A stretch of DNA of 64,000 bases from Nemertoderma westbladi (GCA_032718475.1 JAUCBJ010007324.1:41957-105956); one strand, 5' to 3'. Positions 6,075-58,964 are shown, numbered from the stretch's first letter. Notes: a model not told the origin generated them from the sequence alone. Program-made: numbers and translations.

Positions 6075-6249
6075 TGATGGAAGAGAATAATTGACATAAT
6101 GACCCTAATTAAAGAGTTATCTTTCTAAAAAAAAATAATATAGTATGTATAGGCCGAAACAAAGGAAAGTAGCGAGAAACAGAAGTACAAAAATGAAGAA
6201 TCTATTAATTATATCTCAACGAATTTCCTTGAAATAGATCGAACATCGA

Positions 6250-19195: not shown

Positions 19196-19497
19196 GATTC
19201 CCACATCGTTCACATATCCTATATAATTATCAGCTTATGAGGTTTTGCTGGAATATATTCGACTATATTTAGTAGATTTCGGTAGTTGAATTCGGAAATG
19301 ATTCTCGGTGTTTTACCTATTAGACCAATAATTTAATAATTTTAATTTAAAAATAAAGTTACAATGAAGTTTGTACAAATTAAAATAAAGTTACAATGAC
19401 AATGACGATGAGATGGACTGATCTGATTAGAAAATAAATTTGTAATATAAAATCAAATTAATAACCTTATAATATATTATATTTACATTCCACTATA

Positions 19498-22400
19498 CTA
19501 TTTCCTAACTGTCTTTATGTTTTTTCTAGTTAGTAATTTAACTAAGTGGCTCTGATTAGTTTTATTCAATAATTCACAGAATACAATAAAGTCATCATAA
19601 GGTCTCCTTTTAATGGCTTCTATTAGTTCGCTGTTCCTTTGTAAACCAGTCGGCTGATATTTGATCTGCTCAATAAGATTTTCAGTAAGAATATTTCTAC
19701 TTCTCAATAGCGGTAACAATTCTCTCAGCTCCATGTTATAAACCAGTTCAACTTTATTCCTCATAAGAATATTTTCAAATTCTACATCAACGTTTCCTTT
19801 TATCATATCTACTAAATGTTGTTGGTTTGTTTGTGTTAAACTATCCATAAATACTTTCATAATGAACTCTGATTTCCCTTTCAGAGATTCTATAATGGCT
19901 CGGCTCTTTAGTATTTTAGTTTCTCTTGTTTCTATAAACTGAATCTGATCATTGTTTAGTATAAAACTTTTTTCGATATATAGTAATAACTCAGTTGGTT
20001 CAAGTTTTTCTTCAAATTTTTTTGTTTCAACTTTTAAATATTCCTGATCCTTTGATTTAACTAAAAACCAAGTTTTATATTCCTGAGTTTCTATACTTGC
20101 ATTATTCTCACAGGTAATTATTGGTTTACTCAAACAATCTGATAGTAGAATAAAGTGGATACAGGATTCATTGTGGCATTTATATAGGCCATGCCTTTTA
20201 CATGTATATGAACAAGGACATGTTACTTTCAATTGAAAATCAACAATATTGTTTATTTTTCCAGCTGATATAAGTTCTCCCAAGCTGTCAACAATGTAAT
20301 CTTTTACTCTGTTTGCAAAATCAGAATCTGGAGGACTTATAATATTTTCGTTGCTATCAATATTATCTTTAGGTTTCATAAGAACTTTTCTTACAATTTG
20401 AACTTTTATTCTAGAAAAATGCCTTGGAGACACATATAGAATTATATCGTGATCAACATCACAGTATATAACTACAGACCGGTAGTAAAGAGTTGGTTCA
20501 GATTTAATATCTCCAATGAGATACGACCATTCTATAAGGCGTTTTACTAGTCGATAAAATAGACCCTCAGGTAAAAAACCATTAAATGCAATAAAAAATT
20601 CAATATCATTTGCTTTAATAGGGTAAATAGGCTGATTGGCATTCTGAAGTCTACAAGGTACATAATATGATTTATTCATTTTTGACTTTTTTAACAATGG
20701 TTCTGATTCGTCTCCATTACCTGGCACAGTTTCTCCTATTCTTTCACATATTAAATCAAAACGCTCTAGGATTTTTAACATAAAAGTTTTTTTGAGTCCC
20801 ATATTACCCCAGATATCGTCCAGTAGATCCCAGTGCAATATACCCTTGTCATCCAAATCCTCAAAATATTTCAAATTTTTCCAATTGATATGTTCTTTGA
20901 CTGTAATTATACTGGCAAACATTGAACTTAACCACTCTGGTTTCAATATAATTGTATCACGCAACGATTCTTCATCAAAATAGATAATTCTACCTCTATC
21001 ATGGTAAAATTCTAACATTGTCTTTAAACCGGGGTATTCAAATTCTACTTTTATTTCCTTTAACTTACATTCTAAATCTATAATATCAATATATACGTCA
21101 TCAATTTTAAGTAATTGAGTTACAAGTTTTTCAAATTTTAAATAATCCAAAGGAATTTCTTCCTTAAATTTGTCCATTTCTTTAACAATTTCTAGCTGTA
21201 AGTTTTGAAGTTCTTCATCTGAATCTGATCTTGCCTCTTTGCTATTTTCCACAGCAAATGCTTCTTTAACTAAAATATTGCAATGCAATGTGGACTTTAA
21301 TAGTCGGAAAATTTCTTTAAACTTTTTACGAGCTAAAATGTTCTGAGTTTCTGGATCTTCATGCAAACTGGCTTTCTTTGTTCCAACTAAGAATACTGGA
21401 GGACCAGAAATGTTTGCGCCACTTTCTGAATTATTTTTACCAAATGTAAATATATTGCGCAACCAAAAATCAATAAATTCTATATTAGTCATCTCGCTAT
21501 ATATCTTATTTATATTCTCTTCATCGGCTCTGAATATAATGTTGGCTGTTTTATCACCATCTTGGGTAAGATCAAAAACAACTATATAAATAGCCCGTCT
21601 ACTTAGAAACATCTGATGGGTTGTGTAATAAATACATTGGCCACCAAAATCGACTATCTGTAGAGAAAAGCGACTGTCTTCCTCATTAAATTTAGCCAGA
21701 ATATCTTGAGGTTTACCAGATAACAATATATCCTCTATACCTTTTGTGACTTCTGAAGGGATATCATATTTATTGCCCTCAAATTTTGATTCATGTGGCG
21801 TTACGACTTTTCCGCTATCAGATATTTTTCCTCTTTCGCTATCTACTGAAATATCTTCTCTAATTTCCTTGCTGCTTTCTATTTTAACAGGCTTATCATA
21901 AGAACTGGTTCTATTATTCATGTCTCTATCGCTATTTTCACCAGATATTACTGATAAAGTTGACTGGGCGCCATCAGTGTATATTTTTTCACTGTCCACA
22001 TTAGAAGCATCTTCTTGAACTTTGAATTCTAGAACACTTTTTGCAACTTTCTTTGCAACAGCATTGTCTGGATCAGCATCTAATATATCAACATTCTTTA
22101 AGTTAGTCCAGTCTGTGTGTTTATCAGTATCTATAACACAATTAGCCACTGAATTAATACCATCTGTTATTGGTTCATTAATATCAAATGGTTGACCAAT
22201 AAGGGCCTTCTTCAAACTAGTTTTACCAGCCCTCTCTTGTCCCACTAACATTAACCGGGTTTTCAGTATCCATGTAGTCCCTTTAGAAAGAGCTGCTTTA
22301 TAAGCAGCCAATGCTTCTGGGCCTCTCGCCAGTATCTCTATCGGCAGTTTTTGTTCTTTTATATAATTAATTAAAAATTTTGGAAGTTTCAGTGTATTTG

Positions 22401-22766
22401 ATCTACTTATATTCATAATCATAAGTCCCATGTCTCTGAATTTATTAACAATTTCTATTGTTGAAATTTCATTTAAACCCCAAATACTAACCAGATTCTG
22501 AGTTGTTAACTCAGAAATATCTGCATCCAGTCTAAAGTAAAGTTCTTTCTCTTTATCAGAAAGAACATCAACAGTAGACTTAATTATATTATTTATCTTA
22601 CCCTGAAGTGGTTTATTTATGGGACCAACCCATCCGATATACTCAACAATTTCCTTTAATTCTTCAGTTTTCTCCAATATACTTTCCACCTGTTTGATAC
22701 TTTTCTTTGTTTCAGTTTGACCTTCACGGAACGTATCAATTACTGTAATTGTGTCGCCATTATCTC
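19498..22766 (-). CDS. Last coding exon of a ROCO-family gene: end of WD40 blade, winged-helix-like segment, Roc GTPase, COR, Cys/His cluster, two CARD domains
   Basis: Acceptor tactttatacAG|GA at 22767/22766. Roc lead-in PIEILARGPEALAAYKAAL; P-loop GQERAGKTS (22242-22216); G3 DFGGQ (21651-21637); YYTTHQMFLSRRAIYIVVFD; PPVFLVGT; COR ML.FYHDRGRIIYF...IILKPEWL and PEGLFYRL. Two C-terminal CARD-like repeats (~20045-19800 and ~19775-19530, e.g. LMRNKVELVYNMELRELLPLLRSRNILT...RNSELIEAIKRR...FCELLNKTNQSHLVKLL). Confidence 0.88.
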
Positions 22767-22809
22767 CTGTATAAAGTATAATTATTGTTAAGCTGTCTTT
22801 CCATCCACT

Positions 22810-23180
22810 GAGTTGACATCCAATATTACGATGAAAAATTCTGGGTTGGAGCAAGTTAAATTTTATTAATCAAGTTACAAATATAATTATAAATATAATT
22901 CGTTAGGCTCTCCAGTATGCACCTACGGTCCCTATACGTTTCCCTGCCTATGTCTTCTGTTTTTTGGTTACAACATTTATTCTGTTTTTAGTGCAATTTT
23001 CAACAGATCAAGTCATACATTACGTTAGTCAATTCTGCAATTTATATTAGAATTTGTACTTTATTGATAATGATAGCGCTGACCTACCGAAATATATATG
23101 TAATAATATTTGACATTTGATTAATAATATTTAACTTGCTCCAACCCAGATTTTTTCATCGAATATAACTGACATCTCAA
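22810..23180. mobile_element. MITE-like element with ~80-bp imperfect terminal inverted repeats
   Basis: CGATGAAAAATTCTGGGTTGGAGCAAGTTAAAT (~22830-22862) is inverted at ~23129-23161 (ATTTAACTTGCTCCAACCCAGATTTTTTCATCG). Confidence 0.65.
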
Positions 23181-23228
23181 ACTTTCTTATAGTTAATCCA
23201 AAATTACGTATTATAGCAAGGATAAACG

Positions 23229-23320
23229 GACAATAGGCGGGACAATAGGCGGGGCAATAGGCGGGACAATAGGCGGGACAATAGGCGGGACAATATGTGG
23301 GGCAATAGGCGGGACAATAG
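23229..23320. repeat. 12-bp tandem repeat (GGGACAATAGGC), ~7 copies
   Basis: Visible periodicity; gives the PPIV repeat in ORF 23211-23396. Confidence 0.85.
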
Positions 23321-23397
23321 GATGGTTAAAATTATAAAAATATGTTTTTTGCAATATTTTTGAGCCGAAGTATGAAGCTGAAATACAATATCTCACT

Positions 23398-24805
23398 GAT
23401 ACTGTATACTGTTAATATAAACAACTACCCGCGATACTGTATACTGTTAATATAAACAACTACCCACGATACTGTATACTGTTAATATAAACAACTACCC
23501 GCGATACTGTATACTGTTAATATAAACAACTACCCGCGATACAGTATACTGTTAATATAAACAACTACCCGCGATACTGTATACTGTTACTATAAACAAC
23601 TACCCGCGATACTGTATACTGTTAATATAAACAACTACCCGCGATACTGTATACTGTTAATATAAACAACTACCCGCGATACTGTGTACTGTTAATATAA
23701 ACAACTACCCGCGATACTGTATACTGTTAATATAAACAACTACCCGCGATACTGTATACTGTTAATATAAACAACTACCCGCGATACTGTATACTGTTAA
23801 TATAAACAACTACCCGCAATACTGTTAATATAAACAACTACCCGCGATACTGTATACTGTTAATATAAACAACTACCCGCGATACTGTATACTGTTAATA
23901 TAAACAACTACCCGCGATACTGTTAATATAAACAACTACCCGCGATACTGTATACTGTTAATATAAACAACTACCCGCGATACTGTATACTGTTAATATA
24001 AACAACTACCCGCGATACTGTATACTGTTAATATAAACAACTACCCGCGATACTGTATACTGTTAATATAAACAACTACCCGCGATACTGTATACTGTTA
24101 ATATAAACAACTACCCGCGATACTGTATACTGTTAATATAAACAACTACCCGCGATACTGTATACTGTTAATATAAACAACTACCCGCAATACTGTTAAT
24201 ATAAACAACTACCCGCGATACTGTATACTGTTAATATAAACAACTACCCGCGATACTGTATACTGTTAATATAAACAACTACCCGCGATACTGTTAATAT
24301 AAACAACTACCCGCGATACTGTATACTGTTAATATAAACAACTACCCGCGATACTGTATACTGTTAATATAAACAACTACCCGCGATACTGTATACTGTT
24401 AATATAAACAACTACCCGCGATACTGTATACTGTTAATATAAACAACTACCCGCGATACTGTATACTGTTAATATAAACAACTACCCGCGATACTGTATA
24501 CTGTTAATATAAACAACTACCCGCGATACTGTATACTGTTAATATAAACAACTACCCGCGATACTGTATACTGTTAATATAAACAACTACCCGCGATACT
24601 GTATACTGTTAATATAAACAACTACCCGCGATACTGTATACTGTTAATATAAACAACTACCTGCGATACTGTATACTGTTAATATAAACAACTACCCATG
24701 ATACTGTATACTGTTAATATAAACAACTACCAGCGATACTGTATACTGTTAATATAAACAACTACCCGCGATACTGTATACTGTTAATATAAACAACTAC
24801 CCGCG
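23398..24805. repeat. 35-bp tandem repeat, ~40 copies
   Basis: Unit GATACTGTATACTGTTAATATAAACAACTACCCGC; some units lack one ATACTGT heptamer. Confidence 0.95.
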
Positions 24806-25052
24806 AGATGTGGTCGAGAATAGTCTCCAACACTCCGCCAGCTCCAACAGTAGCACCCAAACCTACTGACGATACTGACTGTGTTATACGATTTGTACCA
24901 ACTGTCTCCAAAGCTATAAAAACAATCCTTGATCAGATTGGATTGCACACATTTAATTTCGAACGTAGGTAGACTCGGTCAAATATATTGGACCAGACGA
25001 ACTACCAATTTAAACTTAGTGCTGGTGTAAATAGTGCTGGTGAACAAGGCTG

Positions 25053-25910
25053 CGATAAGTCCCTCTTGAAATGACTCCCCAGTCGTCTCAGCCTATGCTG
25101 AGAACACTCGCCACTCCCAGTTATCGTTGTCTAGACTTAGAACACTCCCCTGAGGCCGAGATGACTCCCCTTAGGCTTAGATGACTCCCCTTAGGCTGAT
25201 ATCTGAGATGACTCCCTTTAGGCTGAGATTACTCCACTTAGGCTGATATGACTCCCCTTAGGCCGAGATGACTCCCCTTAGGCCGAGATGACTCCCCTTA
25301 GTCTGAGATGACTCCCCTTAGGCCGAGATGACTCCCTTTAGGCTGAGTTGACTCCCTTTAGGCTGAGATGGCTCCCCTTAGGCTGATATGACTCCCTTTA
25401 GGCCGAGATGACTCCCCTTAGGCTGAGATAACTCCCCTTAGGCTGATATCTGAGATGACTCCCTTTAGGCTGAGATGACTCCCTTTAGGCCGAGATGACT
25501 CCCCTTAGGCTGAGATAACTCCCCTTAGGCTGATATCTGAGATGACTCCCTTTAGGCTGAGATGACTCCCTTTAGGCCGAGATGACTCCCCTTAGGCCGA
25601 GATGACTCCCCTTAGGCTTAGATAACTCCCCTTAGGCCGAGATGACTCCTCTTAGTCTCCTAGATAGACTCCTCTACTCTAATTGAGTTATAATTCATAT
25701 CTGTACCTGTGCTATTTTCGTATATTGCAAAAATTAAACTGTTACCTATGTTAATGAGTTATTGTTTATTGTTTTGGTTAGAAAAGCCCGCCACTGTAAC
25801 CTGCTCCTTTCCTTAAATTAAGAAATCTAGGAAGAAAACTGGGGGTGTTCTCAGCCTAGGCTGAAAAGACTGGGGAGTCATATTTGGTGGGGAGTTATCT
25901 CAGCCTGTTA
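25053..25910. mobile_element. Non-autonomous TIR element containing an internal 20-bp tandem array
   Basis: 25053-25138 is the diverged reverse complement of 25823-25909 (ATGACTCCCCAGTC..TCAGCCTA.GCTGAGAACAC). Internal array (GAGATGACTCCCCTTAGGCT)n at ~25150-25657. Confidence 0.7.
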
Positions 25911-27064
25911 CATCGGACGAACTACCAATTAAAATTTTTTTTACAAAGTTTAAGTTGACTCGATATGAAACTGTTTCGAAAATTTCTACAAATTTGCTCC
26001 GATTTAAAGAGGGTTGGGAAAGAAGGTTAAACTCATGCATGCAATATGTAAAATAGACTGTAATGCCTGAACTGACCATAATTACATTGGAAAACTTAAA
26101 CGAAAACATGTAAAACGCCACAACAAACATTATTTATGGAGAGTGTTAGAGTTTTTACTGACAGTGTTGGTGGTGGGCTTAAAATTTGAATGTAAATAAT
26201 GGTAATTGGTAAATAAAATGTACCGATTTATAGTTTGAAGCGGTCTTATATAATGGCTATAAACGTTGTGGAATAACACAACACTGTATCGACAATGGCC
26301 ACTTATTCGACGAATATAACGTGTCAGTTCTAGACTCCCATATATAGATCCAACCGATTTGGCAACTCATGAAACTATTAAAATACGAACTAATTTATAT
26401 ACATATATTTTTATATGAATTTATTTTACCAGGAATAAAACGACATTAAAAATTGTACTTTCTTTGATGAGTGGCACTTATATACTTATATGAACTTACA
26501 TTACTATTTTTCCGCACTCACTGTTCTGTACACTCGTAATTTTTGATAAAGACACTTACTCTGCTATAAACAGTACAATAATTCCACACTTATTGTAACA
26601 TGAGAAAACCTACCAAATCCAATGATACATTTCTCTGTTTGTGGGAAAGTATGTTTGTTTGTGGTGGTGGGAAATTTCAAAAAGGTCAGGTTATCATATT
26701 CTGTATCAATACCGGTATACTGTAAATACTATAGAGTAAAGTTGTCTTTGCCTGACCCCGTAAGAGATCAGGAATATTGCCGTACAGTTGTAAATAGTAA
26801 ATGTGGCTGTAAATAAAATAGTCATATTCCAAACAGTTGAGTCAAAAATCAAGTCCCTACTGCACGATAATTTAACTCGCAGAAATAAGCTGTTTCCTTA
26901 TTAATAATTGTATTAGTTCAACTCAGAGCAGAGGACCCCATGTAACCGGAATTTTCAATTTTACATTTAAATTTATACAAAAGTTTTATAAAAGTGACTT
27001 TTACGAAATTGTTGCCTTCGTTTCGTTGCCCATTTTTCTCATCAATAGTGATTTATTTTTTATA

Positions 27065-27450
27065 TATTTGAAAGCTTGCATTGTGAGGATTCCAAATATG
27101 TATTAATGTCTAAATTTCGTTGATAAATAGATGAGATATGGGCGTTCTAAGATTGCAAGAAGTATATTTCATTATAATATACCAGTTATTTATGTATATG
27201 TGTAGAGCTATGCATACATAAATATAATAATATATTATAAATAGGATAAATAAATAGGATTTTTATCATAAAAATGATAAAAATAATATCACGTTCTAGA
27301 ATGTTGTGTTTATATTAATTATAATAAATGACTTCCAGCGAATGATAATTTATCACAATCTTTGAACGCCAGTATTATATATCAGCTGTTTCTCAACGAA
27401 ACTCAAAATATATTTATATTTGGAATCCTTACAACTCGAGCTTTCTAATA
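27065..27450. mobile_element. Degenerate DNA-transposon remnant with internal inverted repeats
   Basis: GAAAGCTTGCATTGTGAGGATTCCAAATAT...GGCGTTCTAAGATTG (~27070-27155) is inverted, with divergence, at ~27356-27445. Confidence 0.45.
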
Positions 27451-28074
27451 ATATATCATTGTGGCTAATATGAGGAATGGCCGTGATGCAATGAGGGCGA
27501 TATCGCAAACGTTAAAAGTCTATAAATTCAAAAAAGAAAATTCTACGTAGCTCCATGTTAAATAAAGTATGATAAAGATTGTATAAAAATAAGGTGGGGT
27601 GTGGGTTAGGGATGACACTTCTTATCTAAAATGACAGGTGTAATATATTATTATAATAAGCCTTTGTTGTAAGTAATGGGACTGTGTGGCAGACCTAAAA
27701 ATGAAAGTTTTTATTATACATTACCGGTTGTATTCTCTGTACAGTTACTTTACTGCATTGCAGTACCGGTACGCCTATTGGTACCATTATAGTTTGTTTA
27801 TTTAAGTAGAACTACCAGTTGGTTAAAACGCCATTGATACAAACCAATAACAAACAACCTAACATATAACTGAATACATAATATTATTAAGCTAATTACT
27901 GGTTTATTAGTTTATTTTTATGTTACATTCACCGGAACCAAACCGCACCTAAAACTATCCGACTACAGGGACTATGTAGGGACTCATAGACTGTACTACA
28001 GGGACTCATAGAGTACATGCAAGCTGTAGGCCTGCCGACAATAAGACCAAGAAAGATACCGGTACTAGGCCTAT

Positions 28075-31000
28075 ACAGTTTTTATCCCTGAGTCAGACTA
28101 CAGCCAGACAGCACAATGTCCCCGCTCTTAATCTCCACAGTTTTCATCGTTCTGGGTCGTTTCGTTGTGGCAGAACCATCCGATCCGCGGGGTAACCCTG
28201 CAACCCACCCAATACCCGTATTGGACTGGTTTGCGGAACACCCTGTCGCTACCGTTTCGAACTGCCGCGCCGAATCGACGGAGATGTGGTCGACGAGTGG
28301 ATTTAGCCTCTACTGCTCTCGTCCGGGAAGAAGATCTTGGGTCTCCTCTCCACGAACTAGAGGCCTAATCGCCAAACTCTGTCTTCTGTCTCTGGCTGGG
28401 GATATTGAAACCAACCCAGGACCCAGCAGGACGCGGGCCCCGAAGATCAACTGTCCCGTCTGTCAACGAGGAACAAACTCTCGGAGTAAGATCGTCCAAT
28501 GCGAGAGTTGTGACACATTTGTACATTTAAAATGTTACCGTAGGAAACGCAGTAATTTATTCTCCACCAGAAACAATCTTGAACCAAGTTTTCTCTGCAA
28601 TAGCTGTATTTTTACCGAACTTCCCTTTCATGATACAATTTTAGAATCAGAAACCGACGATTCATTTCTCACATCGCCTCTGCAAACTCCAAGTGATGCT
28701 GAGAGTGAAACTTTTAATTTTTTTAAGAAAAAAGGTCTGCATTTTTTGCACTTAAACGCACGATCTCTGCTTCCAAAACTTTCCGAAATTCGTATTTTAA
28801 TCAATAAATCCAACCCAGCAGTTTTAACAATCTCTGAAACTTGGCTCGATGATAGTGTTTCTGATGGAGAAATTTATATTGATAATTACGTAGTTTTACG
28901 TAAGGATAGGGACAGACACGGTGGTGGTGTCTGTACTTACATTCGATGTGATTTAGCTTTTAATCGTAGGGAAGATTTAGAGACTTGTGACGAAGTTTTA
29001 CTGGTGGAACTTTTACTTCCTAAAACTAAACCTATTTTAATCGGTACTTTATATCGGCCCCCTAAACAATCAGATTTTTTGCAAAATTTTGAAAATACAA
29101 TTTTATGTAATCTTAGGTCAGACTGTGAAATATATTTCTTAGGTGATTTTAATATCTGTTACCATCACAAAGCATCCCCCATCTGTAAACAGTACCAAAG
29201 TATTTTAAATTTGTTTGGTTTAAAACAAATTATTCGAGATTCTACCAGAATTACCAGTAAATCTTCTACTTTACTAGATCACATCCTTTGTAATAATACC
29301 GATATTATTTCTCAATCTGGGGTTTTACCTATAGGTCTAAGCGATCATTTTATAGTTTTTTGCACAAGAAAGACACAAAAATCTTTTTTCGGGGATCATA
29401 AAACAGTAACAGTTAGGTCTATGAAAAATTACAGCAAGGAACGCTTTTTAAGTTTGTTAGTTAATTCTGACTGGGAACCCTGTTTTAAGGCCGCTGACAT
29501 TAACCTTGCGTACACTGTTTTTAAAGATATATTTTTAAAGGCACTTAATACTGTAGCACCAATTAAAGAAATTAGTCTTAAACAACGCACTGAGCCCTGG
29601 ATGACCTCGGGTATTCTTAGTAATATCAGAGAAAGAGATAACTATTTGTATAAATTTAGGAAATACCGTGTTTTAGCTGATTATAATAATTACTGCAAAT
29701 ATAGAAACCTTGTCCAACGGGAAATAAAAAAAGCTAAATCTGAATATTTGTACAACAAAATAAGTGAGAATAAAGATAATCCTAAAAGTCTATGGTCTAC
29801 CCTAAAATCTTTAGGTTATAAAAACCTTAAATCTAAATCGAATATTGTTCTGCAAGATAACGGTGAGCTGATTCATGATCATACTCTAGTTAGTAATTTA
29901 TTTAATAATTATTTTACTAATGTTGCCTCTAATTTAGTTAAGAAATTACCGTTATCAAGTAATAAATATAGTATAGGGTCCGAAACTCTAAATAATTTTT
30001 ATTTAGAAAAGTTACAAAATTCAGAAAAGTTATTTTTAAAACCCGTTTCTGAGGATTTCGTTTTTAAAAATCTACTTAGCCTATCAGCCTCAAAAAGTAC
30101 CGGTCTAGATCTAATACCTGCCCGTTTTCTTAAGGATGGTGCTGAAGTACTTAAAGTGCCTATTACTTTTATTATTAATTACTCTATCGTAGATAATGTA
30201 GTACCAGACGAACTGAAATTAGCTAAGGTTGTTCCGCTGTATAAAAAGAATAGTAAAGTAGAACCCTGTAATTACAGACCTGTTAGTATCTTAAGTATTG
30301 TATCTAAAATTCTAGAACGTTCTGTTTTTCTACAGCTGGAAGCACATCTTAGTAGGCTAAATCTGATCTATGAACTTCAGTCCGGTTTTCGTAAATCATA
30401 TTCTACAGACACCTGCCTTATTAACTTAACTGATACAATTAGATGTAATAACGCAAAGGGTTTATATACTGGTATGGTAATGTTGGACCTACAAAAGGCT
30501 TTCGATACTGTAGATCACAATATTCTGCTTGGTAAGTTAGGCCTGATGGGTGTAGGTTCTATAGACTGGTTCAAGTCCTACCTGTCAGACAGAGGTCAAA
30601 CTGTAGTCATTAGCAAATCGCAGTCTACTGTACAAGAGATTACCTGTGGTGTACCGCAAGGTAGTATATTAGGTCCTCTGCTTTTTGTATGCTATGTAAA
30701 TGATATGATAAGTAGTATAGATCCCGATTTTAAACTCATTTTATATGCCGACGACAGTGCTCTTATTTTCTCTCATAAAGATCCTATCCATATTTCCCAA
30801 AAGTTAAGTGCAGTTCTAGAATCCTGTAATGAGTGGTTGGTTGATAATAAGCTATCCATTCACTACGGTAAAACTGAAAGTATTTTGTTTGGTTCCAAAA
30901 GAAAGTTAAAGAAGGTAACTAAGTTTGAAGTCACTAGTAATGGACATAAGATTGAAAATAAAAAGGAAGTTAAATATTTAGGCGCCACATTGGATAACTG

Positions 31001-31939
31001 CTTATCAGGAGAAAGTACAGTGAAAAATATTTTCTCGAAAGTTAACAGTAGGCTTAGGTTTCTATACAGAAATAAAAATAGTTTAAACACCGACTCCCGC
31101 AAGTTACTTTGCTCTTCTTTAATACAGTGTCACATGGACTATGCGTGCTCTTCTTGGTATGAAGGCTTAACCAAACAGCTTAAATGTAAATTACAAGTAG
31201 CTCAGAATAAAGTAGTACGATTTATTAAAGACTACAAACCTAGGCACAACCTAACTCCAGATGACTTTTCTGAATCTGGACTACTTAACTTAGATAGTAG
31301 AGTTAAGCAGCTACGCCTTAACCATGTGCATAAAGTGTATAATGGTAAATGTCCCAATTACCTAAAACAAAAATTCAACAGAGTACGCGATACACACTCT
31401 TACAGTACCAGAGCTAGTGCTTCAAACTTCTACCTCCCGAATTGTAAATCCTTTGAATCTGATACTTTCTTTTTTAACGGCATAAAAAATTGGAACGCTC
31501 TGCCTAATGAAATTAAAAACCTAAATAATCAACATTCTTTTAAATCTGCAGTTAAATCTCATCTCTGTGCGCAATGTAAAAATAGGTACAATAGTCCTAC
31601 AGTAAGTTATTAGTTTATTAATTATTTACTATTTATACTGTAATTACGTTTTATAATAAACTATCATTACATCTTTATCGTTGAGTCGGACATTGTCACG
31701 CTCTCGGTAAAGTTGTACATGTACATAGTGTAATTACGTTTTATATTGGTTTTAGGTTAGCGTAGTGTAATATTGTATTTGTAACCAAGTAACATAAAGG
31801 ACCCCCTTGGAAATAAGCTGCAAAGCTTTAGGGGTAATCCTATATGTTATGTTGGACAATACCTTTATACCGGTACATTGTTTGGTGTATTTGTTATTGT
31901 TTTTACATAATGTATAAATAAATCTATCTATCTATCTAT
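28075..31939 (+). mobile_element. Apparently intact L2/CR1-group LINE, antisense within the ROCO intron
   Basis: Single long ORF; 3'UTR stem-loop AGGACCCCC...GGGGTAATCCT (31798-31841); AATAAA at 31917-31922 followed by a (TCTA)n tail. The 5' boundary is approximate. Confidence 0.88.
28116..31613 (+). CDS. LINE polyprotein: leader + 2A-like peptide, PHD-like finger, AP endonuclease, reverse transcriptase (1165 aa)
   Basis: GDIETNPGP; CPVC...CESC...H..C...CNSC; APE motifs HLNARSL, ISETWL, GGGVCTY, GDFN, LLDHI, SDH; RT motifs NYRPVS, QSGFR, LDLQKAFD, GVPQGSILGP, YADD, YLG. Confidence 0.93.
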   Translation: MSPLLISTVFIVLGRFVVAEPSDPRGNPATHPIPVLDWFAEHPVATVSNCRAESTEMWSTSGFSLYCSRPGRRSWVSSPRTRGLIAKLCLLSLAGDIETNPGPSRTRAPKINCPVCQRGTNSRSKIVQCESCDTFVHLKCYRRKRSNLFSTRNNLEPSFLCNSCIFTELPFHDTILESETDDSFLTSPLQTPSDAESETFNFFKKKGLHFLHLNARSLLPKLSEIRILINKSNPAVLTISETWLDDSVSDGEIYIDNYVVLRKDRDRHGGGVCTYIRCDLAFNRREDLETCDEVLLVELLLPKTKPILIGTLYRPPKQSDFLQNFENTILCNLRSDCEIYFLGDFNICYHHKASPICKQYQSILNLFGLKQIIRDSTRITSKSSTLLDHILCNNTDIISQSGVLPIGLSDHFIVFCTRKTQKSFFGDHKTVTVRSMKNYSKERFLSLLVNSDWEPCFKAADINLAYTVFKDIFLKALNTVAPIKEISLKQRTEPWMTSGILSNIRERDNYLYKFRKYRVLADYNNYCKYRNLVQREIKKAKSEYLYNKISENKDNPKSLWSTLKSLGYKNLKSKSNIVLQDNGELIHDHTLVSNLFNNYFTNVASNLVKKLPLSSNKYSIGSETLNNFYLEKLQNSEKLFLKPVSEDFVFKNLLSLSASKSTGLDLIPARFLKDGAEVLKVPITFIINYSIVDNVVPDELKLAKVVPLYKKNSKVEPCNYRPVSILSIVSKILERSVFLQLEAHLSRLNLIYELQSGFRKSYSTDTCLINLTDTIRCNNAKGLYTGMVMLDLQKAFDTVDHNILLGKLGLMGVGSIDWFKSYLSDRGQTVVISKSQSTVQEITCGVPQGSILGPLLFVCYVNDMISSIDPDFKLILYADDSALIFSHKDPIHISQKLSAVLESCNEWLVDNKLSIHYGKTESILFGSKRKLKKVTKFEVTSNGHKIENKKEVKYLGATLDNCLSGESTVKNIFSKVNSRLRFLYRNKNSLNTDSRKLLCSSLIQCHMDYACSSWYEGLTKQLKCKLQVAQNKVVRFIKDYKPRHNLTPDDFSESGLLNLDSRVKQLRLNHVHKVYNGKCPNYLKQKFNRVRDTHSYSTRASASNFYLPNCKSFESDTFFFNGIKNWNALPNEIKNLNNQHSFKSAVKSHLCAQCKNRYNSPTVSY

Positions 31940-32250
31940 GTTGTAATGGTCTATTCTGATACCCCTATTACTGTAGACTAATTTATATTTCGTTCCCATG
32001 GTACCCAATATTGGCAGGAGGCAGTAAAGGTAATGTTCAGTTAATCCACATCATATCGGTAAGTAAATTATTAATTAATTTAAATTAAGCAATAATAATT
32101 AATGTAATTAATTCATTTACGTGTTATAATGATTACCGGTATTACTTACTATAGGCCTACCTATGGTACGTGGTACAGTACTGAATTAGACCCCAGGCCC
32201 AATTAATTAATTTAACGTGTTTTAATAAAATAGGTCTATTAATTAATTAC

Positions 32251-33103
32251 CTGTAATAATATGCCGGTCATCTTTACAGAAATCCACCGCTAGGATGACG
32301 CTCCCAGTTCCTTCAATCCGGTTGATAATCTCACCAGTTACAGAATTTAGAATATAAATCAACCCGGTGTTCCACCCAACAGCAGCGATTCTGGATCCGT
32401 TCGGACTCAATACGATCCCCCGGACCCCAGGAGTTGCTTCCTGTCTCCACAAGGTCTCCCCTGTACCAACACCGAAGCGATGGATCCCTCCTCCATCATC
32501 TACCGACACCACTGACTCCCCATCCGGACCCCAACCCAGACTCCAGACCCACCGACTGTGCCCCCGGTATTGATACAACATCTCCCGGGTTCCGGTCACC
32601 CAAACTTTTACTGTTCCATCCCACGAACAGCTGGCCAACCGGGACCCGTTCGAGTCGAACCGAATACAGTTAACCGACTCCGAATGCCCCACCCAGTTCG
32701 TTACCTTATATTTCCTCCCAGTTATTGATATAATAGAAATCCTCCCGTCGGACCCACAAGTTGCAATGACGTCCCGGTTGGAGGGATTTATATCTATTCC
32801 CAACCTAGTTACATGCTCCCCCCCACCAACCACTAACTCCCTCCACGGTACCTCCACTACGACCCTCCAACCGGTCGCTTCCCGCTCCCAGACAGTCACC
32901 GACCCCCCCGCCCAGGTTCCCGAGGCAACGCGGTTCCCGTCCGTAGAAACCGCGACTCTCCTGTAATCGTTAGAACCTCCGGATCCCGGTAGATCTTCCT
33001 TTACGTAGAGAGTTGTTGAGTTTATGATACAGGCGAGGTTGTGAGACACAAAGACAACCTCCTCGGTACCCGGGATCATTTTGAGTTCCTCGATCGGCTC
33101 CAT
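32251..33103 (-). CDS. WD40 beta-propeller exon (about 7 blades) of the WD40-ROCO-CARD gene
   Basis: Repeats GHSESVNCIRFDSNGSRLASCSWDGTVKVW, GHSRWVWSLGWGPDGESVVS, VAVSTDGNRVASG...VTVW and others. Acceptor ttttatcttttAG at 33124; ATG in ACAATGG context; donor at 32250. Confidence 0.85.
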
Positions 33104-34329
33104 TGTTAGGGGGATTATTGAATCTAAAAGATAAAATAAAGTAAATTGCCGCTAAATTGCTAAAGTACTAATAAGTATTACAGCGCTAGTAATTGTTATT
33201 AGATAGTCAGCGTAGCCAGTAATTATTTACTAGCTGTTTTTATTTATTCGGTTTGTATAAACGATCAATATAATATTTAATTTATTTTTAATGTTCCAGT
33301 AAAACAAAGTGTTCTAGAACCTTAATTGATAACGAACTTGTTCTAGGAGATTAAAAAGTAGCGACAACTAGTTAGTTTAAATAAAATGTTCTAGAACAAA
33401 ATAAATATGTTCTAGAACATGAATATTGAACATCCAGTATTTGTGCTACATACCGTAGTTAGTATAAGGTTTGGTATTTAATAAATATACGGAAGAAAAC
33501 CTTTTCAAACTAAAATTTATTTAGTTTATTATTAATTTTCGCATATTGCTATGGAAACTAGCTAAAATTATAATCGTATAATTTTAAATAAATGTTCTAT
33601 AATTGTTGTATTATACCTTTCCTAAAATTATACTCTTTTCTTAGAAATTGCTCTGTTACGAGATTCTAGAAATTATATGTTGCAGTATATTCATATAATT
33701 TTATGTATTATCCTATGGTACAGCAATATACCAAACTTGCTACGGTTTATTTCAATAATATACTATAGCTAAATATTTCACATTAAACAAAATGACCATC
33801 TCAATAAGATTGACAGATTGGCACTATAAATTCTACTCCAGTATTCGTAAGAATGATAACTCTTATTACAAACTGACCTCAACAAAAGCCATGCGAGCAT
33901 CATTAAATTAGATAGAAACGGCATAAAAAACTTAGATCTTTTAGTTGTTTGCCATCTTATTAATTTAATTTAATTTTACTGGGGGGGGGGGGGGGGGGGG
34001 GGTACTAGTGTAACACAAGTGTCACTATTATTCTGCCTTTGTACTGTATAGCTGTTTTATAGCTGTTTTGGCTGTTGATTTATGTTCTGGAACATATTTC
34101 CGACTCGGTACATGTGTAATTTTTATGGTAGCTAGTGTTTTCAATGGTAGTTAATATATTCATAAAAATGGTACAGTAGCTAGTGTATTTAAAAATACCA
34201 ACAAATCGTATTATTATTATGAATATCCATATTAAATTTGGTTTATCTTTATTTATTTATCAGAGAAAAGATTCTAGTATTGAAGAAAATAAAATAACGT
34301 GATTTCTGCAACAATTTATTAAATAGATA

Positions 34330-34565
34330 ATGAAAAAAATCTACAGTAGTTGCACCGATTGGGTCGTCCTTACGACTCATTTCCAGTATAGACCCCACAG
34401 AACTAACTCCTTACAGGCAAAGAGATAACTGGTACTCATTTAACGACCATTTAATTAACAAAGCAAATATGCGCCCTGGTTTGGTTAGTCCCCTTAAAGT
34501 ATTTGTGCCAAAACGAAACTATCCTGGCCCGCCTGCAGGGGTAGAACCCCACGACCTCTGGAGCG
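34330..34565 (-). mobile_element. Possible degenerate tRNA-derived SINE
   Basis: The minus strand begins with a B-box-like GAGGTCGTGGGGTTCTACCCC; the downstream body is unremarkable. Weak call. Confidence 0.3.
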
Positions 34566-34733
34566 ATATTAATTCAAGGAAATGGATTTAAATGCTATGC
34601 ATAGCTTGGAAAAATTGATTATGCGTGTTTGTATTAGGACACGACCCTTAAAAATACAAAGTAAGCTGTCATGTTGTTCGTTCAATATGTTCAAATTAAC
34701 AATAAACACAATATTGCAATGTTCTAGAGTTAA

Positions 34734-34916
34734 TATACGGAAATAATAACCTGAAGCGAATAAAACTGAATAATCACTGATGCCGTTCCAGAAGCAAATT
34801 AACCTGTATAATTACCGAGGCCGCAGGCCGAGGTTATTATATTAGGTTAATTTGCTGAAGGATAAGGCAGAAGTGATTATTACAGTTTTATTCGCTGAAG
34901 GTTTTTATTTCCGTAT
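34734..34916. repeat. Imperfect foldback (~180 bp) centred on CCGAGGCCGCAGGCCGAGG
   Basis: ATACGGAAATAA..AACCT..AGCGAATAAAACTG pairs with CAGTTTTATTCGCT..AGGTT..TATTTCCGTAT. Confidence 0.75.
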
Positions 34917-36917: not shown

Positions 36918-39377
36918 TCCATGACATTAATTATAATATTGCATTTAAATAGATTAAATTGATAATTTCTATATAATAATAGCGAGTTTTTGCTTATTTT
37001 ATTATAAATGTTCTAGAACAAGTGTTGGTTATCAATTTTGATAAATACTTTTGTTCTTGAACACATTTTTTTTCTAGAACATTTTTAGGAAAAAAAATAC
37101 CATACTACTGTCAGAAGGTCAAATATTTGTTCTAGAATAAAAACCTCATGATAAAAGCCTATTTATATGAAAAAAATAGGTCAAACTACGGGTACCCAAG
37201 GTGTTATAGTAATGGCCGTATTTAACTATGGAAGAAGCTTCGATGGACGATATTTATGCTGAAATAGGTCCAGATAAAAGTGAGAGAAGATTTACAACAA
37301 ATAAAACGATGTAAGTTGTGGAAAAAAGTAACATTTTTTGCCTTGTTTTGCTTTCGCGCGCCAAAAAAAGCCAACTTTTTTTGCCACCACTTGCACATTT
37401 GTAGATTTTAGAGGGATGGGACAATATGACCACCCCCCCCCCCCCCCCCCCCCCCGGTATTTGTACAGCATTTTATAGCCCGGTACTAATAGGGTTAAAT
37501 CTCGTCTAAAAGTCGTCTATTTCGCAATATTTAGCCACCTCCGTCGGCTTTATTTTTCGTTTTTGGAATGAAATCTAGATATCATTAGATCCGCCTTCAT
37601 CTGCAGATTCCGAATATGAAACCCGTTGTAAATTTCACCGAGAACTTCCGGAGATATTATCAAAATACTAAGGTGTAAATTTATGTGAGTAAATCGCTAT
37701 AATTCTAATGTTTTATTTACTCAATTCTAGAATATTGAATATGGATAATGAAAAAACAAGATGGAGCGTCTCTAAATTTATACACATTAGTATTTTGATA
37801 ATATTGTTGTATTGGTTAATTATTGGTTAAATCGATGGCACCATGACGAACAGTCGTATTGGCAATTTTTGCGATTTTGACTTTATTGGGTATTTGAGTT
37901 CATAAAAGGTGGAACTATGTTTTGACAAAAGGTCGTATTCATATCTTCAGTATTAAACACTGTACAGTAAAAAGCAAACGGCCTTATATCGTATTTCTAA
38001 ATAATTTTAATTTGACGAAAGGTCGTATAAGAAAAATTTCCCAAAACGTCTGTTCGTCAAAAAGTTAGTCAATGATTATCTTGTAATACGACCTATTAAT
38101 GTTTATAAAAATATGAACTAAAATGTAAGAAACCTTACTAATATTGTTATATTGATGTTTTATTCATATTTCAATATGCAATATTAACTAATTTGCCCAA
38201 AACAATGAGAGTAGAGTTGAACTTGACAGAAAATTTATGATACATTTATTTTTATGCAAGTGGGTGGGTACAACACTGCTCATATTGTAAAGTAATAAAG
38301 TTATTGTTGGACGTGAAACACAAAACACCAAAGGCAATCCAAACAAAGGCTCCACTCTCGCTCTCTTGGCTGTTAATATAAGGCAGAGAGGATGCCACAC
38401 TTACTTCCAATGTTAAATACTCTCATTATACAACACTTTTATTTATCCCCCCACTGTAACTTCTCTTTCGATTATTGTTGTGTTGGTTAAAATAACCGGT
38501 CACAGGAAACTGTTCCTTTCCCTAAATTGAAAATTGACATTGTTGATTCGCCCTCGACCCCCACCCCCCCCCCCCCCCCCCCCGCCCCCCGTATAAATGG
38601 AAAACAATGAATTGTTTTCTTCTGAATGTAAAATATTTTAAGAATTATAGAGAACAATATTATTTAATTACTTTTCCTTCAATGAGTATTGAGTTAATTC
38701 ATAAGATTAGTATGAGTACTTGTTAAGTTTTACAATATGTTTGTTGAATTACTGATGTGGAAGGGAAAGATAAAATTGCGAATACACGGCGGGTATCACT
38801 GGTGTATTACCAGTACAGAGCGAAACGAGGTCATCATACTTTCCTGTAGCCAATCGTGGAGCTGAAGAATATGCTTTAGCTATAGCTGGAATAGATTTTT
38901 TTTCTCGAATTTTGGGAAGAGTAATGGCATCAAATTCCGGTTGTTGATGCATATTCTTGAAGTAAATTTTCTCTGGGTCTCTACCTTTTTAACCAATATT
39001 TGGCACATTGAAGGCCAATTGACATTCACCCCATTGTCACTCTCTCTGGTCTTTAAGATTCCAAGAGATCTGGAATACTCCTTGAAATCGTTTATATCAT
39101 CACTAGTAACTTCTATTACATTATACGGTATATTTCTACTCAACTTAATTACAGGTATAAGCTGTGATGGAAGCATAACCTGACCGCAGCGCTTCATGGC
39201 CCTCTCCACACAAGCATGGACTGAGTCCCCTTCACATTGACCATGATTTGGCACAGATATAATTAGATGAACACGCTCTGCTTTCTTCGAATTCCCTAGG
39301 AATTCACGAAACATAGCAGGCAAAATCGAGTTCTTATTCTGGCCGCTGCATCCATCTGCAAACAGTTTAATGTCTGT
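36918..39377 (-). repeat. Left arm of a large inverted duplication (partner 43326-45977)
   Basis: 37508-39377 is the near-identical reverse complement of 43326-45192, and 36918-37500 matches 45411-45977. An identical 70-aa ORF appears on both strands (38188-38400 and 44300-44512). Confidence 0.93.
38749..39377 (-). pseudogene. Inverted, truncated and frameshifted copy of the 3' part of the Sola-like transposase
   Basis: Same peptide as the 3' end of 40455-43952, with a 2-bp AG insertion near 38980 (VKKVDPEK becomes VKKVETQRK) and an S-to-R change. Confidence 0.9.
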
Positions 39378-40454
39378 GGCGTTTGAAAATTTTTAGTTTT
39401 TAAATTATGCATAACTTGCAATCAACTTTATAAAACCGCTTCATATTTCATTGTAACAACAATTTTGATGAGGGCTTTCAGAAAAAAATGATTTTTTTTT
39501 ATTTAAATAGTATGACGTCATGTAATGACGCCATATTTGAAATACGCCGTTTCGTCAAAAAAATATCAAGGGCTTTTGCCAAAATATGTCAAGTAGTATA
39601 TTTTTACTTATAGCATAAGCCCGGTTCACAATGGAGCAATAAGGTCCTCCATTGTAATTCTGAATATAATTAATTATAGTTTTGCTAAAATTAGAAACGA
39701 TTATTTGTTCTTATGTGTATTACTGGGTCTAAGACCTTTAATCCTTCCTTAAAACTTGTTTCTTCATTGTGAACAACTACTGTACCAATTAATTTATTAT
39801 TCCCTATTGCTCCATTTCCTTCAAGCTTTTTCCATGAAGGAGCGGGAGATTCAAATCTTTGTATTTGTATTTGGATAATCATTATTAATTGGTCTACCTT
39901 ACTACAGGCAGTACCGGTACTTACAACCCAAAAGAGCCTATACAGGGTTGAACTTGTAAGTGAACCGAGCAAAACGAGAGCGAAACTTTTTCTGACTCAT
40001 TTATTTGGTAATGGTAATAACTACCAGTAAGAGTTGCCTTGAGGCATACAGGCAGACAGGTACCGATACAGTTCTGGTGCTGCACTATAGTAGGCTTTCA
40101 TAAGTAAATATGCTATACCAGTACTATCAGTTTTGTCAGTTCCCTATTTTTGCTACCGGTATCTAAACATCCTGTGTGAAATTTCAACGAAATTTGTTAG
40201 GATAAAAAAATTATAGCTCAATAATCGCTCGCATTGTTAGCCCTACTTTCAGACTTTTTCCTGTCTAATTATTTAGCATCCTTGTTTAGAATTCTCACTA
40301 CTGTTATTAGACTATGTCTGTAATGTTTTAGATTCAGTCAAGCGAATTAAAAATTGCTCTGTTGTTTTACCGGTAGTCATGTTTATAGGCTTATTATTAT
40401 TATGTTTTGTTCACGGTACTTTTTGACTTAGACCTATTTACTACTCTGCTACTT

Positions 40455-43400
40455 ATGGATACAACAAGGAATAGATCGTTTGATTCCGATGATGAGTCTA
40501 TTTTTTATGGGTTTATTTTGGACAGTTTGGGTGAAAGCATTATGGGGAATGAGCTTCCCCCAGACAAAGCTATATTGATCGATGTTCCCCCAGACAAAGC
40601 TACGATTGTCGATGTTCCCCTAGACAAAGCTATGATGGTCGATGTTCCTGCAGACATAGCTACGATTGTCGATGTTCCTACAGACATAGCTACGATTGTC
40701 GATGTTTCCCCAGACAAGGCTACAGTGTTCGATATTCCCGCAGACAAAGCTATGTTGGTCGATGTTCCCCCAGACAAAGCTATGATTGTCGATGTTCCCC
40801 TAGACAAAGCTATGATGGTCGATGTTCCTACAGACATAGCTACGATTGTTGATGTTCCCCCAGACAAGGCTACAGTGTTCGATATTCCCGCAGACAAAGC
40901 TATGTTGGTCGATGTTCCCCCAGACAAAGCTATGATTGTCGATGTTCCCTTAGACAAAGCTATGATGGTCGATGTTCCTACAGACATAGCTACGATTGTT
41001 GATGTTCCCCCAGACAAGGCTACAGTGTTCGATATTCCCGCAGACAAAGCTATGTTGGTCGATGTTCCCCCAGACAAAGCTATGATTGTCGATGTTCCCC
41101 TAGACAAAGCTATGATGGTCGATGTTCCTGCAGACATAGCTACGATTGTCGATGTTCCCCCAGACAAGGCTATAGTGTTCGATATTCCCGCAGACAAAGC
41201 TATGTTGGTCGATGTTCCCCCAGACAAAGCTATGATTGTCGATGTTCCCCTAGACAAAGCTATGATGGTCGATGTTCCTACAGACATAGCTACGATTGTT
41301 GATGTTCCCCCAGACAAGGCTACAGTGTTCGATATTCCCGCAGACAAAGCTATGTTGGTCGATGTTCCCCCAGACAAAGCTATGATTGTCGATGTTCCCC
41401 TAGACAAAGCTATGATGGTCGATGTTCCTACAGACATAGCTACGATTGTTGATGTTCCCCCAGACAAGGCTACAGTGTTCGATATTCCCGCAGACAAAGC
41501 TATGTTGGTCGATGTTCCCCCAGACAAAGCTATGATTGTCGATGTTCCCCTAGACAAAGCTATGATGGTCGATGTTCCTGCAGACATAGCTACGATTGTC
41601 GATGTTCCCCCAGACAAGGTTACAGTGTTCGATATTCCTGCAGACATAGCTACGATTGTCGATGTTCCCCCAGAAAAAGCTACAGTGTTCGATGTTCCCC
41701 CCAGTCAAGCAATATATTTATGTAAAGAACCTCTATATGAAGTCAATAGTAACATAGAAAGTGAGTGTGACAACTGTTGTATCAATGTGTCAAATTTTTA
41801 TGGGTTTTCTTTGGACAGTATGGTTTTTGATATGCCCCTGGACAAAGCTACTATTGTAGATGTTCCTCCAGCCAGTGCTATGATGGTTGATGTTCCCCCT
41901 GACGCAGCTGCGATGGTCCAAGTTCCCCCAGAGAATGCTATGGCGAGGAAATCTAGAAATAAAGAACCTCTGTATGGACTCGATGAGAACATAGAAAGTG
42001 ACTGCGATGACTCCTATTTAGATGAAGATTACTCACCTTCAGAATATAGTGATTTGTCTGATTCTGAGTTTTTTGAGGATTATGATATTTTTCAAGATTC
42101 ACCTTTTCAGAGTAATAATTTTGAAGAAGGAGACGATAACATAGAATGTGTACCTGAAGATTTTATTGTGGATGGGGCACCACCAGAAGGTGATGGTGTT
42201 GTTAATGTAAGCATAAAGCACTCAAAGTGCAAGAGACTGATAGTAAAGAAGAATCGGAATTCAGGCCAACCGTATTTGAGCGAGAAGTCCCGTAAAGAGT
42301 TTAGTTCTCGTCGTGTCCTTGGTACAAGATGTAACTGCGCCCTTCGCAACACCAAGGAAATTAAAGACTGTAGGTTAGTTACTGAGGAAGTTCGCAAGAA
42401 TCTTATGGAATCGTTTTATGATCTTGGCAGTTTAGAGGAGCAGCGTAAATATATATTGCGCCATGTTAGATCTACATCACTTTGTGAACCAAAGGGGAAA
42501 AAGAAACAAACTCTTAATTACACACTATTTAAAGATGGTGAATACATTTCTGTTTGCAAACAACTTTTTCTCAAAACTTTTAATATAAGCGAGAAATTTG
42601 TTTATACAACCATCAAGAAGCTGTCTGCAGATGGTGTCTTGGAAGGAGAGAAACGAGGTGGTCGAGTAGCATCTCTAAAAGTGAAAGATGAGTTTCTTGA
42701 AACAAGAACAAGTGAGCATATTGATAGATTTCCAAAGGTCGATGCACATTATACCAGGAAAGATTCCAAGAAGAATTATTTATCGGAGGATCTTTCTGTT
42801 CCAAAGATGTTCAGAATGTATAAAGCTGAAGAAAAGAGAGCAGGAAATCCTGCTGCTTCCTTTAGTAAATATTCTAACGTCTTTCAATCGAAAAACCTAG
42901 CTATCCATCACCCAAAGAAAAATTTGTGTGGTCTTTGCGAAACGCACCGTAGTGCTGTAAAGACCCAAAATATTGTTGGTGGTGAGATTAATGCTGAGCT
43001 GAAAGAAGAGTACGAGCAGCACACTAGTGAAAAGTTGAAATATAGAGAGATAAAAGAGGATTTAACAAAAAGAGCAAAAGCTGATGAATGTAACCAAATC
43101 GCCGCAGCTTCATTTGACCTTGAGCAGGTCATTTACCTTCCAAAATCCAACAGGGCGGAAATCTTTTATAAGAGACGTTTAGCAAATTATAATTTTACAA
43201 TATATAATCTGGCTTCAAAAGAGGTACATTGCTATTTGTGGCATGAAGCAGTGGCTCAGCGGGGATCGAATGAAATCTCATCATTTCTTAATAAGTGGCT
43301 TCATTTCCAAGATGGTCGGGGAGTGACAGACATTAAACTGTTTGCAGATGGATGCAGCGGCCAGAATAAGAACTCGATTTTGCCTGCTATGTTTCGTGAA

Positions 43401-58870: not shown

Positions 58871-58964
58871 GTATTATAGAAGGCAGTCACCTGCCATCTA
58901 TAATGCATTTTGCAACACAGAAGTTTTAAGATCACAATTATATTGAGCATATTGGAAGTGTGCT

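Follow-up and report, generated by a model that had tools for sequence, protein, structure and literature searches.

The locus described here raises the question whether two neighbouring open reading frames (ORFs) of Nemertoderma westbladi, one coding for a WD40 propeller and the other for a Roc GTPase, a COR domain and two CARDs, are exons of one gene and, if so, what kind of protein this gene would encode. Both lie on the minus strand of a 64,000-nt stretch of DNA (GCA_032718475.1 JAUCBJ010007324.1:41957-105956), which was analyzed at its full length and is here called the window. Positions are counted from its first letter. Based on reading frames, splice sites and domain matches, we consider it probable that the WD40 exon and the Roco exon are spliced into one transcript.

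Reading frames and the proposed splice junction

The WD40 ORF spans positions 32243-33151 (302 codons from stop to stop) and the Roc-COR-CARD-CARD ORF positions 19498-22869 (1123 codons). The WD40 frame has an ATG at 33103 and a phase 1 donor, CAG/GTAATT, at 32251/32250. Its stop lies two codons past this donor and short of the third strand of the last repeat. Among the 10 donor-like sites listed for 31900-33150 this is the sole AG/GT. The Roco frame carries the acceptor TATACAG/GA at 22767/22766, which is in phase 1 as well, so that both sites and their phases are as proposed in the initial annotation. Spliced from ATG 33103, the two parts add up to 853 + 3269 = 4122 nt or 1374 codons with a single terminal stop, which reproduces the 1373-residue protein predicted earlier. 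The features of the predicted gene are:

33104..33123, minus strand: 5' end of the WD40 exon before the ATG, untranslated or coding depending on the upstream exon
32251..33103, minus strand: WD40 exon, measuring 853 nt between ATG and donor (Pfam PF00400, propeller models)
22767..32250, minus strand: predicted GT-AG intron of 9484 nt with a long interspersed nuclear element (LINE) and tandem arrays (splice sites)
28092..31613, plus strand: intact PHD-endonuclease-reverse transcriptase ORF of the LINE, antisense in the intron and a passenger (Pfam PHD, Exo_endo_phos, RVT_1)
22735..22766, minus strand: start of exon 2, about 10 residues predicted to be the missing strand of the last blade (repeat-profile score)
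22354..22704, minus strand: linker domain of about 115 residues, probably helical (open frame without a usable Met upstream)
21160..22347, minus strand: pre-Roc helix and Roc GTPase with a low-complexity insert of about 150 residues (Pfam, PDB, motifs)
G1 22242, G2 near 22176, G3 21651, G4 21384, G5 21255, minus strand: Roc motifs (motif columns)
20065..21153, minus strand: COR domain (Pfam for COR-A, aligned relatives for the C-terminal half)
20152..20220, minus strand: Cys/His-rich motif at the end of COR (pattern common to relatives)
19798..20040, minus strand: CARD 1 (Pfam CARD E 4.5e-6, 27 bits with a cut-off of 23.9)
19525..19773, minus strand: CARD 2 (best CARD stretch; whole-fragment E 7.6e-17)
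19498..19500, minus strand: stop codon (end of ORF)

Two ATTAAA hexamers at 19346 and 19337, about 150 nt past the stop, are candidate polyadenylation signals.

The two frames are neighbours on the same strand, they match in phase (chance 1 in 3) and each of them is incomplete alone. Between the 22766 acceptor and its first Met the Roco frame stays open for 111 codons. By our arithmetic, an open run of this length is expected roughly once in 7000 at 32% GC, and we conclude that the Roco frame needs an upstream exon. A Roco gene of its own that begins with the first Met was therefore rejected, since it leaves the 111 codons unexplained. The acceptors at 22840, 22807 and 22792 were rejected too, because their phase 2 is wrong for the 32251 donor. 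No further WD40 or Roco fragment was found elsewhere in the window by tblastn with the full collected protein set. Neither frame overlaps the tandem arrays, which rules out that they are repeat artefacts, and a bacterial contaminant is ruled out by the introns, the LINEs and the animal relatives.

It had also been claimed that the join restores a full WD40 blade. We scored the last WD40 repeat with a profile of 400 WD repeats after splicing the donor to every downstream AG. In total, 1880 AG sites were present, 885 of which were open for 12 codons, giving 886 rows together with the unspliced control. Acceptor 22766 ranked 21st of these with 10.5 bits, compared to 7.5 bits for the unspliced frame and a median of 5.8. 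With splicing, the last-repeat score went up from 2.5 to 5.7 bits, and the match was extended from position 29 to position 35 of the 41 profile positions. The repeat is thus improved by the join, but 20 other AG sites complete the blade equally well or better. Blade completion is supportive of the join and not unique to it.

At the 5' side of the WD40 exon a phase 1 acceptor at 33124/33123 with 84% pyrimidines was the top of six strong sites among 663 AGs. This points to a further upstream exon, and the N-terminus may precede Met 33103. With phase 1 at both ends the WD40 exon is symmetric, so that it could be inserted or skipped in frame.

Several observations weigh against the join. The pyrimidine tract of the 22766 acceptor is weak (53%), and the two exons differ strongly in composition: GC content is 53% in the WD40 exon versus 32% in the Roco exon, G+C at third codon positions (GC3) is 0.58 versus 0.24, and G+C at four-fold sites is 57% versus 19%. 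The ratio of observed to expected CpG is 0.98 in the WD40 exon versus 0.52 in the Roco exon. Methylation of the gene body but not of its 5' end is a well-established pattern in invertebrates, and the lower CpG value of the Roco exon fits gene-body methylation. However, the GC content of the WD40 exon is also far above that of its flanks (31%), where methylation has no explaining power, and this suggests a different history of the WD40 exon. Furthermore, the WD40 exon matched none of 161 Roco relatives, which comprised the best 150 of 5029 HMMER matches and 11 distant Roco matches from a word-index search. The linker was unmatched in the same 161 proteins, with a best E of 0.064.

An alternative to the joint transcript is that the Roco exon splices to another upstream exon, while the WD40 exon is separate, truncated or newly inserted. 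The large GC3 gap, the in-frame skippable WD40 exon and the fact that no protein among the 161 relatives has both the WD40 and the Roco part would all be in line with this, as would a blade completion merely in the top 2-3% of AG sites. Nevertheless, this alternative appears unlikely to us, given the adjacency, common strand and phase of the two exons and the incompleteness of each alone. Additionally, inspection by eye and tblastn revealed no other candidate exon among the minus-strand open stretches of at least 45 codons outside masked repeats. We therefore keep to one transcript containing both exons.

Sequencing run X1, the type of which was guessed, was neutral with respect to the join and to expression. 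In the region 19300-23200 it contained one contig of 198 nt (21584-21781, one difference, depth 2.4) and a partial match of 37 nt. In the region 25700-34900 most of the LINE was covered at about 99%, and the WD40 exon and both junctions were uncovered.

Domain composition

The WD40, Roc, COR and CARD-CARD assignments of the initial annotation were borne out by Pfam on both frames. On the first frame WD40 (PF00400) was matched with E 5.7e-25, many propeller models matched as well, and 164 PDB sequences were found at E <= 1e-12. Six repeats were assigned by the WD40 repeat profile, whereas a seventh, N-terminal one was read by eye only. This part of the protein is probably a seven-bladed beta-propeller, judged from its repeats, in which the last blade would be without its third strand before splicing. 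A word-index search with the WD40 part gave 122 matches; the 120 listed came largely from microbial collections and in most cases shared 22-36% identity. No match at E <= 1e-14 was obtained among proteins of similar length in this search.

Single-sequence AlphaFold2 models were too poor to read, with a mean predicted local distance difference test (pLDDT) value of 41.7 for the propeller and 30.6 for the linker. Modelling of a complex between the propeller and the first 40 residues of exon 2, without alignment and without folded controls, scored 0.00 and gave no verdict.

The linker between WD40 and Roc had been interpreted as a winged helix. This was unconfirmed by Pfam, PDB or STAND-profile searches: single-sequence searches gave no Pfam match and no significant PDB match, and against a profile built from 8-10 bacterial STAND winged-helix sequences the linker scored -2.8 bits, while 500 shuffles reached 5.8.

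At the C-terminal end Pfam CARD was matched with E 1.3e-14 in two stretches, and each CARD passed the cut-off alone. The two are 31% identical to each other over 68 residues (E 1e-9). Matches to the CARDs of CED-4, APAF-1, RAIDD and caspase-9 were weak.

The Roc-COR core

On the second frame Pfam identified Roc (E 1.1e-12), directly followed by COR-A (E 1.6e-11). The best structural matches of the Roc-COR part were MbRoco2 (4wnr, E 6e-19), CtRoco (E 3e-11 to 7e-12) and LRRK2 (E 1e-6). The pre-Roc helix, G1, G2 and G3 line up with the archaeal and bacterial Roco proteins of known structure. The lysine and threonine of G1, the threonine of G2, the DxxG of G3 and a typical G5 are all present. The top relatives align through COR to about residue 900. 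These sequence matches place the protein in the Roco family, and not in the APAF-1 or NLR family.

Two positions within Roc cast doubt on an ordinary GTPase switch. The last residue of G4, which reads guanine, is Ala, in contrast to the Asp, Asn or Glu of 93 of 107 relatives, and the Asp of G3 follows a Val instead of the Trp found in 97 of 107. Normal GTP use is thus not assured, and by analogy with small GTPases guanine specificity or affinity may be relaxed. However, 14 of the 107 relatives likewise lack D, N or E at the G4 position. Since this position is variable within the Roco family, the Ala lowers the claim of GTP use and not that of family membership.

This leads to a second alternative, in which the gene is real and the Roc switch is relaxed or lost. 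The protein would then serve as a COR-linked, constitutive scaffold or be a decaying young chimera, instead of a regulated sensor. Besides the two deviating residues, the terminal branch of the protein in the tree described below is long (1.18 changes per column versus a median of 0.33). On the other hand, 1373 codons are free of stops and frameshifts, the G1, G2, G3 and G5 residues are kept, and the deviation at G4 is shared with the 14 relatives mentioned. We regard a relaxed or lost switch as quite unlikely and a working Roc-COR switch as the preferred interpretation.

A Cys/His pattern at the end of COR was found in 11 of the 150 best relatives. Ten of these 11 were included in the tree, and all 10 fell inside the Neuralized-Roco-Death-TIR group. 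The motif is likely a zinc site.

Relatives and phylogeny

A HMMER search against 1.84 billion representatives resulted in 5029 matches at E <= 0.001. The best 150 shared 26-43% identity with the Nemertoderma protein, and their best stretches started at or after residue 87, mostly at Roc. Thirty relatives were looked up by name, and 29 of them were named animal proteins. At the top were nemertean, amphioxus, mollusc, centipede and starfish proteins of the Neuralized-Roc-COR-Death-TIR type, together with echinoderm expansions. When eight WD40 proteins were used as queries, two of the 161 relatives were matched, via the N-terminal parts of the queries and not via their repeats.

The domain census covered 148 relatives and the 25 commonest families per group. 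A Death domain was present in at least 52 of the 148 and a CARD in at least 5. Other domains among the families listed were TIR, DED, caspase, Bcl-2, NACHT, glycosyltransferase (GT4) and HEPN, and furthermore kinase, ankyrin, TPR, SH2 and NHL.

A quick maximum-likelihood tree of the core was calculated from the 107 of 150 relatives that covered it (506 columns). Here, the Nemertoderma protein was placed in a set of 48 rows with the Neuralized group and echinoderm proteins (SH-like approximate likelihood ratio test, SH-aLRT, 99%). Within this set its branch is long and lies apart from the remaining 47 rows, with a support of 85% only. Taken together, these relatives point to an animal as the host. 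By sequence, the Roc-COR core belongs with the kinase-less invertebrate Roco proteins, which, as far as can be judged from their domains, swap sensors and death-fold effectors freely.

Two observations on the relatives are added. The Neuralized-Roc-COR-Death-TIR protein is conserved between the nemertean, amphioxus, molluscs, centipede and starfish and is mostly annotated as uncharacterised; these proteins often end in a Cys-rich CaaX-like tail. In the Actinia tenebrosa model XP_031567289.1 a NACHT domain is directly joined to Roc-COR and a trypsin-like domain, which would be a STAND-Roco fusion if the model is right.

Comparison with known architectures

The closest cores are those of the Neuralized homology repeat (NHR)-Roc-COR-Death-TIR proteins, for which E values down to 2e-95 and 29-34% identity were obtained (Tubulanus XP_074643355.1, Branchiostoma XP_019640924.1, and proteins of Physella, Strigamia, Asterias and Octopus). 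The position of the insert and the Cys/His motif are common to both. The Nemertoderma protein differs in carrying WD40 and the linker in place of NHR, and CARD-CARD in place of Death-TIR. Pfam found neither an N-terminal NHR nor a C-terminal Death or TIR domain in either frame.

The most similar layout was found in the mussel Sinanodonta woodiana, the proteins of which are uncharacterised GenBank models. KAL3889163.1 combines an N-terminal propeller-like domain, Roc, COR and two C-terminal CARDs, also without kinase and leucine-rich repeats (LRR). However, its front is NHL-like and not WD40, there is no linker before Roc, identity is 27% and the protein falls on a separate branch of the tree. 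The N-terminal domain of 235 residues had an Atlas score of 0.96 to a mollusc NHL-like cluster, in which NHL is assigned to 24% of the members, and this is a lead only. The paralogues KAL3862502.1 and KAL3892357.1 share the NHL-like front and Roc-COR and carry Death or HEPN at the C-terminal end. Additionally, Lingula has an NHL-Roc-COR protein and Branchiostoma floridae a Roc-COR-CARD protein.

Forced grouping of the Nemertoderma protein with the mussel branch of seven rows was rejected by the approximately unbiased (AU) test (p-AU 1.3e-7), a value to be read with the group having been named after the tree was seen and with long branches involved. A common origin with the mussel propeller-Roco proteins was rejected accordingly, and the propeller-Roco-CARD-CARD layout would have arisen separately. 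If so, the separate origin in the mussel suggests a design that was selected and not accidental. A more far-reaching version, in which propeller-Roco-tandem CARD receptors were built at least twice in animals and the one described here took a winged helix from an APAF-1-type gene, appears doubtful.

In Trichoplax adhaerens no fewer than 17 Roco genes carrying CARD, death, TPR, LRR, TIR and AAA domains around Roc-COR are described in the accessible part of a previous report (Civiero et al. 2014, PMC4104024), and WD40 is absent from the domain list of its figure legend. For prokaryotes, the available sections of another study predict sensor-switch-effector proteins with an AP-GTPase (Roco) as counter-invader systems (Kaur et al. 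2021, PMC8195603), and rows of its supplement combine BetaPropeller and AP-GTPase with TIR or Calcineurin. According to these sections, the prokaryotic systems share a repeat sensor, a GTPase switch and a variable effector with the Nemertoderma protein. They differ in that their effectors are enzymatic and the systems are predicted only; no CARD pair was present in the supplement rows searched.

APAF-1, CED-4 and Dark are similar in carrying WD40 and CARD in one chain, with weak CARD similarity. In contrast to them, the Nemertoderma protein has the reverse order, two CARDs, one propeller and no NB-ARC ATPase; neither NB-ARC nor NACHT was matched by Pfam in either frame. LRRK1, LRRK2 and DAPK1 share the Roc-COR core, and their chains additionally contain WD40 in the case of LRRK and a death fold in that of DAPK1, as outlined in the accessible text of PMC6337361. 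Here, kinase, LRR and ankyrin are lacking, and WD40 is N-terminal and not C-terminal as in LRRK. No Pfam match to these three domains was found in either frame, although an upstream exon could add domains.

Roco proteins with TIR or death domains are known from Aplysia and sea anemones (PMC9334734, PMC5094078, as far as accessible). Brown algal LRR-Roco genes have been proposed as immune receptors, and about forty Roco domain combinations are reported in animals (both from the accessible part of PMC11378527). No description of WD40-Roc-COR-CARD in an animal was found in the literature searched, which lay mostly outside subscription papers and was without key domain figures. The novelty proposed for this architecture therefore holds in part: a WD40 front with twin CARDs was not found elsewhere in animals, but near-equivalents exist in the mussel and in prokaryotes, and Roc-COR combined with CARD or death domains is published for Trichoplax.

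Exon shuffling is the most likely origin of the gene, with a Roco module related to the Neuralized-Roco-Death-TIR group. The symmetric phase 1-1 WD40 exon would have been placed before a single-exon Roco module, with the CARDs in the effector slot.

Predicted function

We lean slightly towards a Roco protein without a kinase, at least 1373 residues long, whose predicted role is that of a cytosolic immune or cell-death sensor. By analogy its mode of action is likely that of an NLR, with a sensor, a switch and an effector. As in the WD40 sensors of STAND receptors, the propeller would bind a ligand or partner and restrain the protein until it is bound. Binding would then shift the monomer-dimer and nucleotide cycle of Roc-COR, and a dimer could bring four CARDs together and, through their homotypic contacts, act as a seed for a CARD adaptor or an initiator caspase. 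The tandem-CARD receptors RIG-I and NOD2 provide an analogy for such seeding.

The initial annotation had suggested a GTPase-switched, apoptosome- or NLR-like receptor. Of this, the sensor-switch-effector layout stands and the apoptosome comparison is less well supported. In APAF-1 the ring is built by the STAND nucleotide-binding domain, and the absence of such an ATPase makes an apoptosome ring less likely. As reported in the accessible text of Wauters et al. 2019 (PMC6337361), the Roco proteins studied cycle between monomer and dimer, and the Chlorobium protein is mainly a monomer with GTP and a dimer without nucleotide. A dimer with four CARDs is therefore likelier than a ring.

A third alternative is an apoptosome-like ring with an APAF-1-type winged helix in which Roc-COR replaces the STAND ATPase. 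By eye, and unconfirmed by any tool, the helix pattern of the linker resembles that of STAND winged helices. The best match to the STAND profile, although non-significant, falls on the expected part (profile positions 39-76, residues 56-93). The propeller had APAF-1 as one of its best natural PDB matches, with scores that are summed over repeats and hence unspecific, and STAND-Roco fusions exist (the NACHT-Roc-COR model of Actinia). Against this stand the missing STAND nucleotide-binding domain, the unsupported winged helix and the description of Roco proteins as monomers and dimers (PMC6337361, accessible text). Such a ring is very unlikely in our view, and the four-CARD dimer is the model we prefer.

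A point against a sensor role is that in the literature consulted neither ligand sensing nor caspase activation was demonstrated for any invertebrate death-fold Roco protein. More generally, a role as immune switches is predicted for the kinase-less Roco proteins of bacteria, brown algae and invertebrates, and in the same literature none was tied to a ligand or caspase. A protein with sensor, switch and twin CARDs would offer a direct read-out, by CARD clustering or caspase activation, for the Roc-COR monomer-dimer cycle, which is still debated for LRRK2. As a single gene it adds one more layout to the about forty reported in animals (PMC11378527, accessible part), which limits the surprise. 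If the more far-reaching version mentioned above, which appears doubtful, were true, the gene would be a compact test of whether the Roc-COR switch gates CARD assembly, and Roco GTPases would be parallel, GTP-driven nucleators of inflammasomes or apoptosomes in invertebrates that trade modules with STAND receptors.

Repeats and mobile elements in the window

The DNA of the window is eukaryotic and rich in repeats, which comprise LINEs, a terminal-repeat element and long tandem arrays. Roughly one third of the window is made up of arrays with units of 20, 30, 35, 47, 48, 49, 57 and 76 nt. Three short sequences were over-represented: TACCGGTA was present 13 times (0.9 expected), TAGGCCTA five times (0.9 expected) and GTTCTAGAAC seven times (0.07 expected).

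Contigs of run X1 match 28219-31907, including most of the LINE ORF in the intron (28092-31613, plus strand), at about 99%, which indicates that this LINE family is young. A reverse-transcriptase ORF is located at 4491-6104 on the minus strand (Pfam RVT_1, E 5e-35). A broken remnant at 57286-58886 on the same strand resembles non-long terminal repeat (non-LTR) elements and has no Pfam match.

An element of about 9 kb spans 36918-45977 and is flanked by terminal inverted repeats of about 2.5 kb, which are 99.7% identical over 1871 nt. It contains an ORF of 1187 codons (40389-43952, plus strand), the first third of which includes a 30-nt tandem repeat. The C-terminal part of this ORF is transposase-like without a Pfam match. 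The element is probably a young DNA transposon. It is adjoined by a small element at 45982-46686, the inverted ends of which are 150 nt long and 91% alike.

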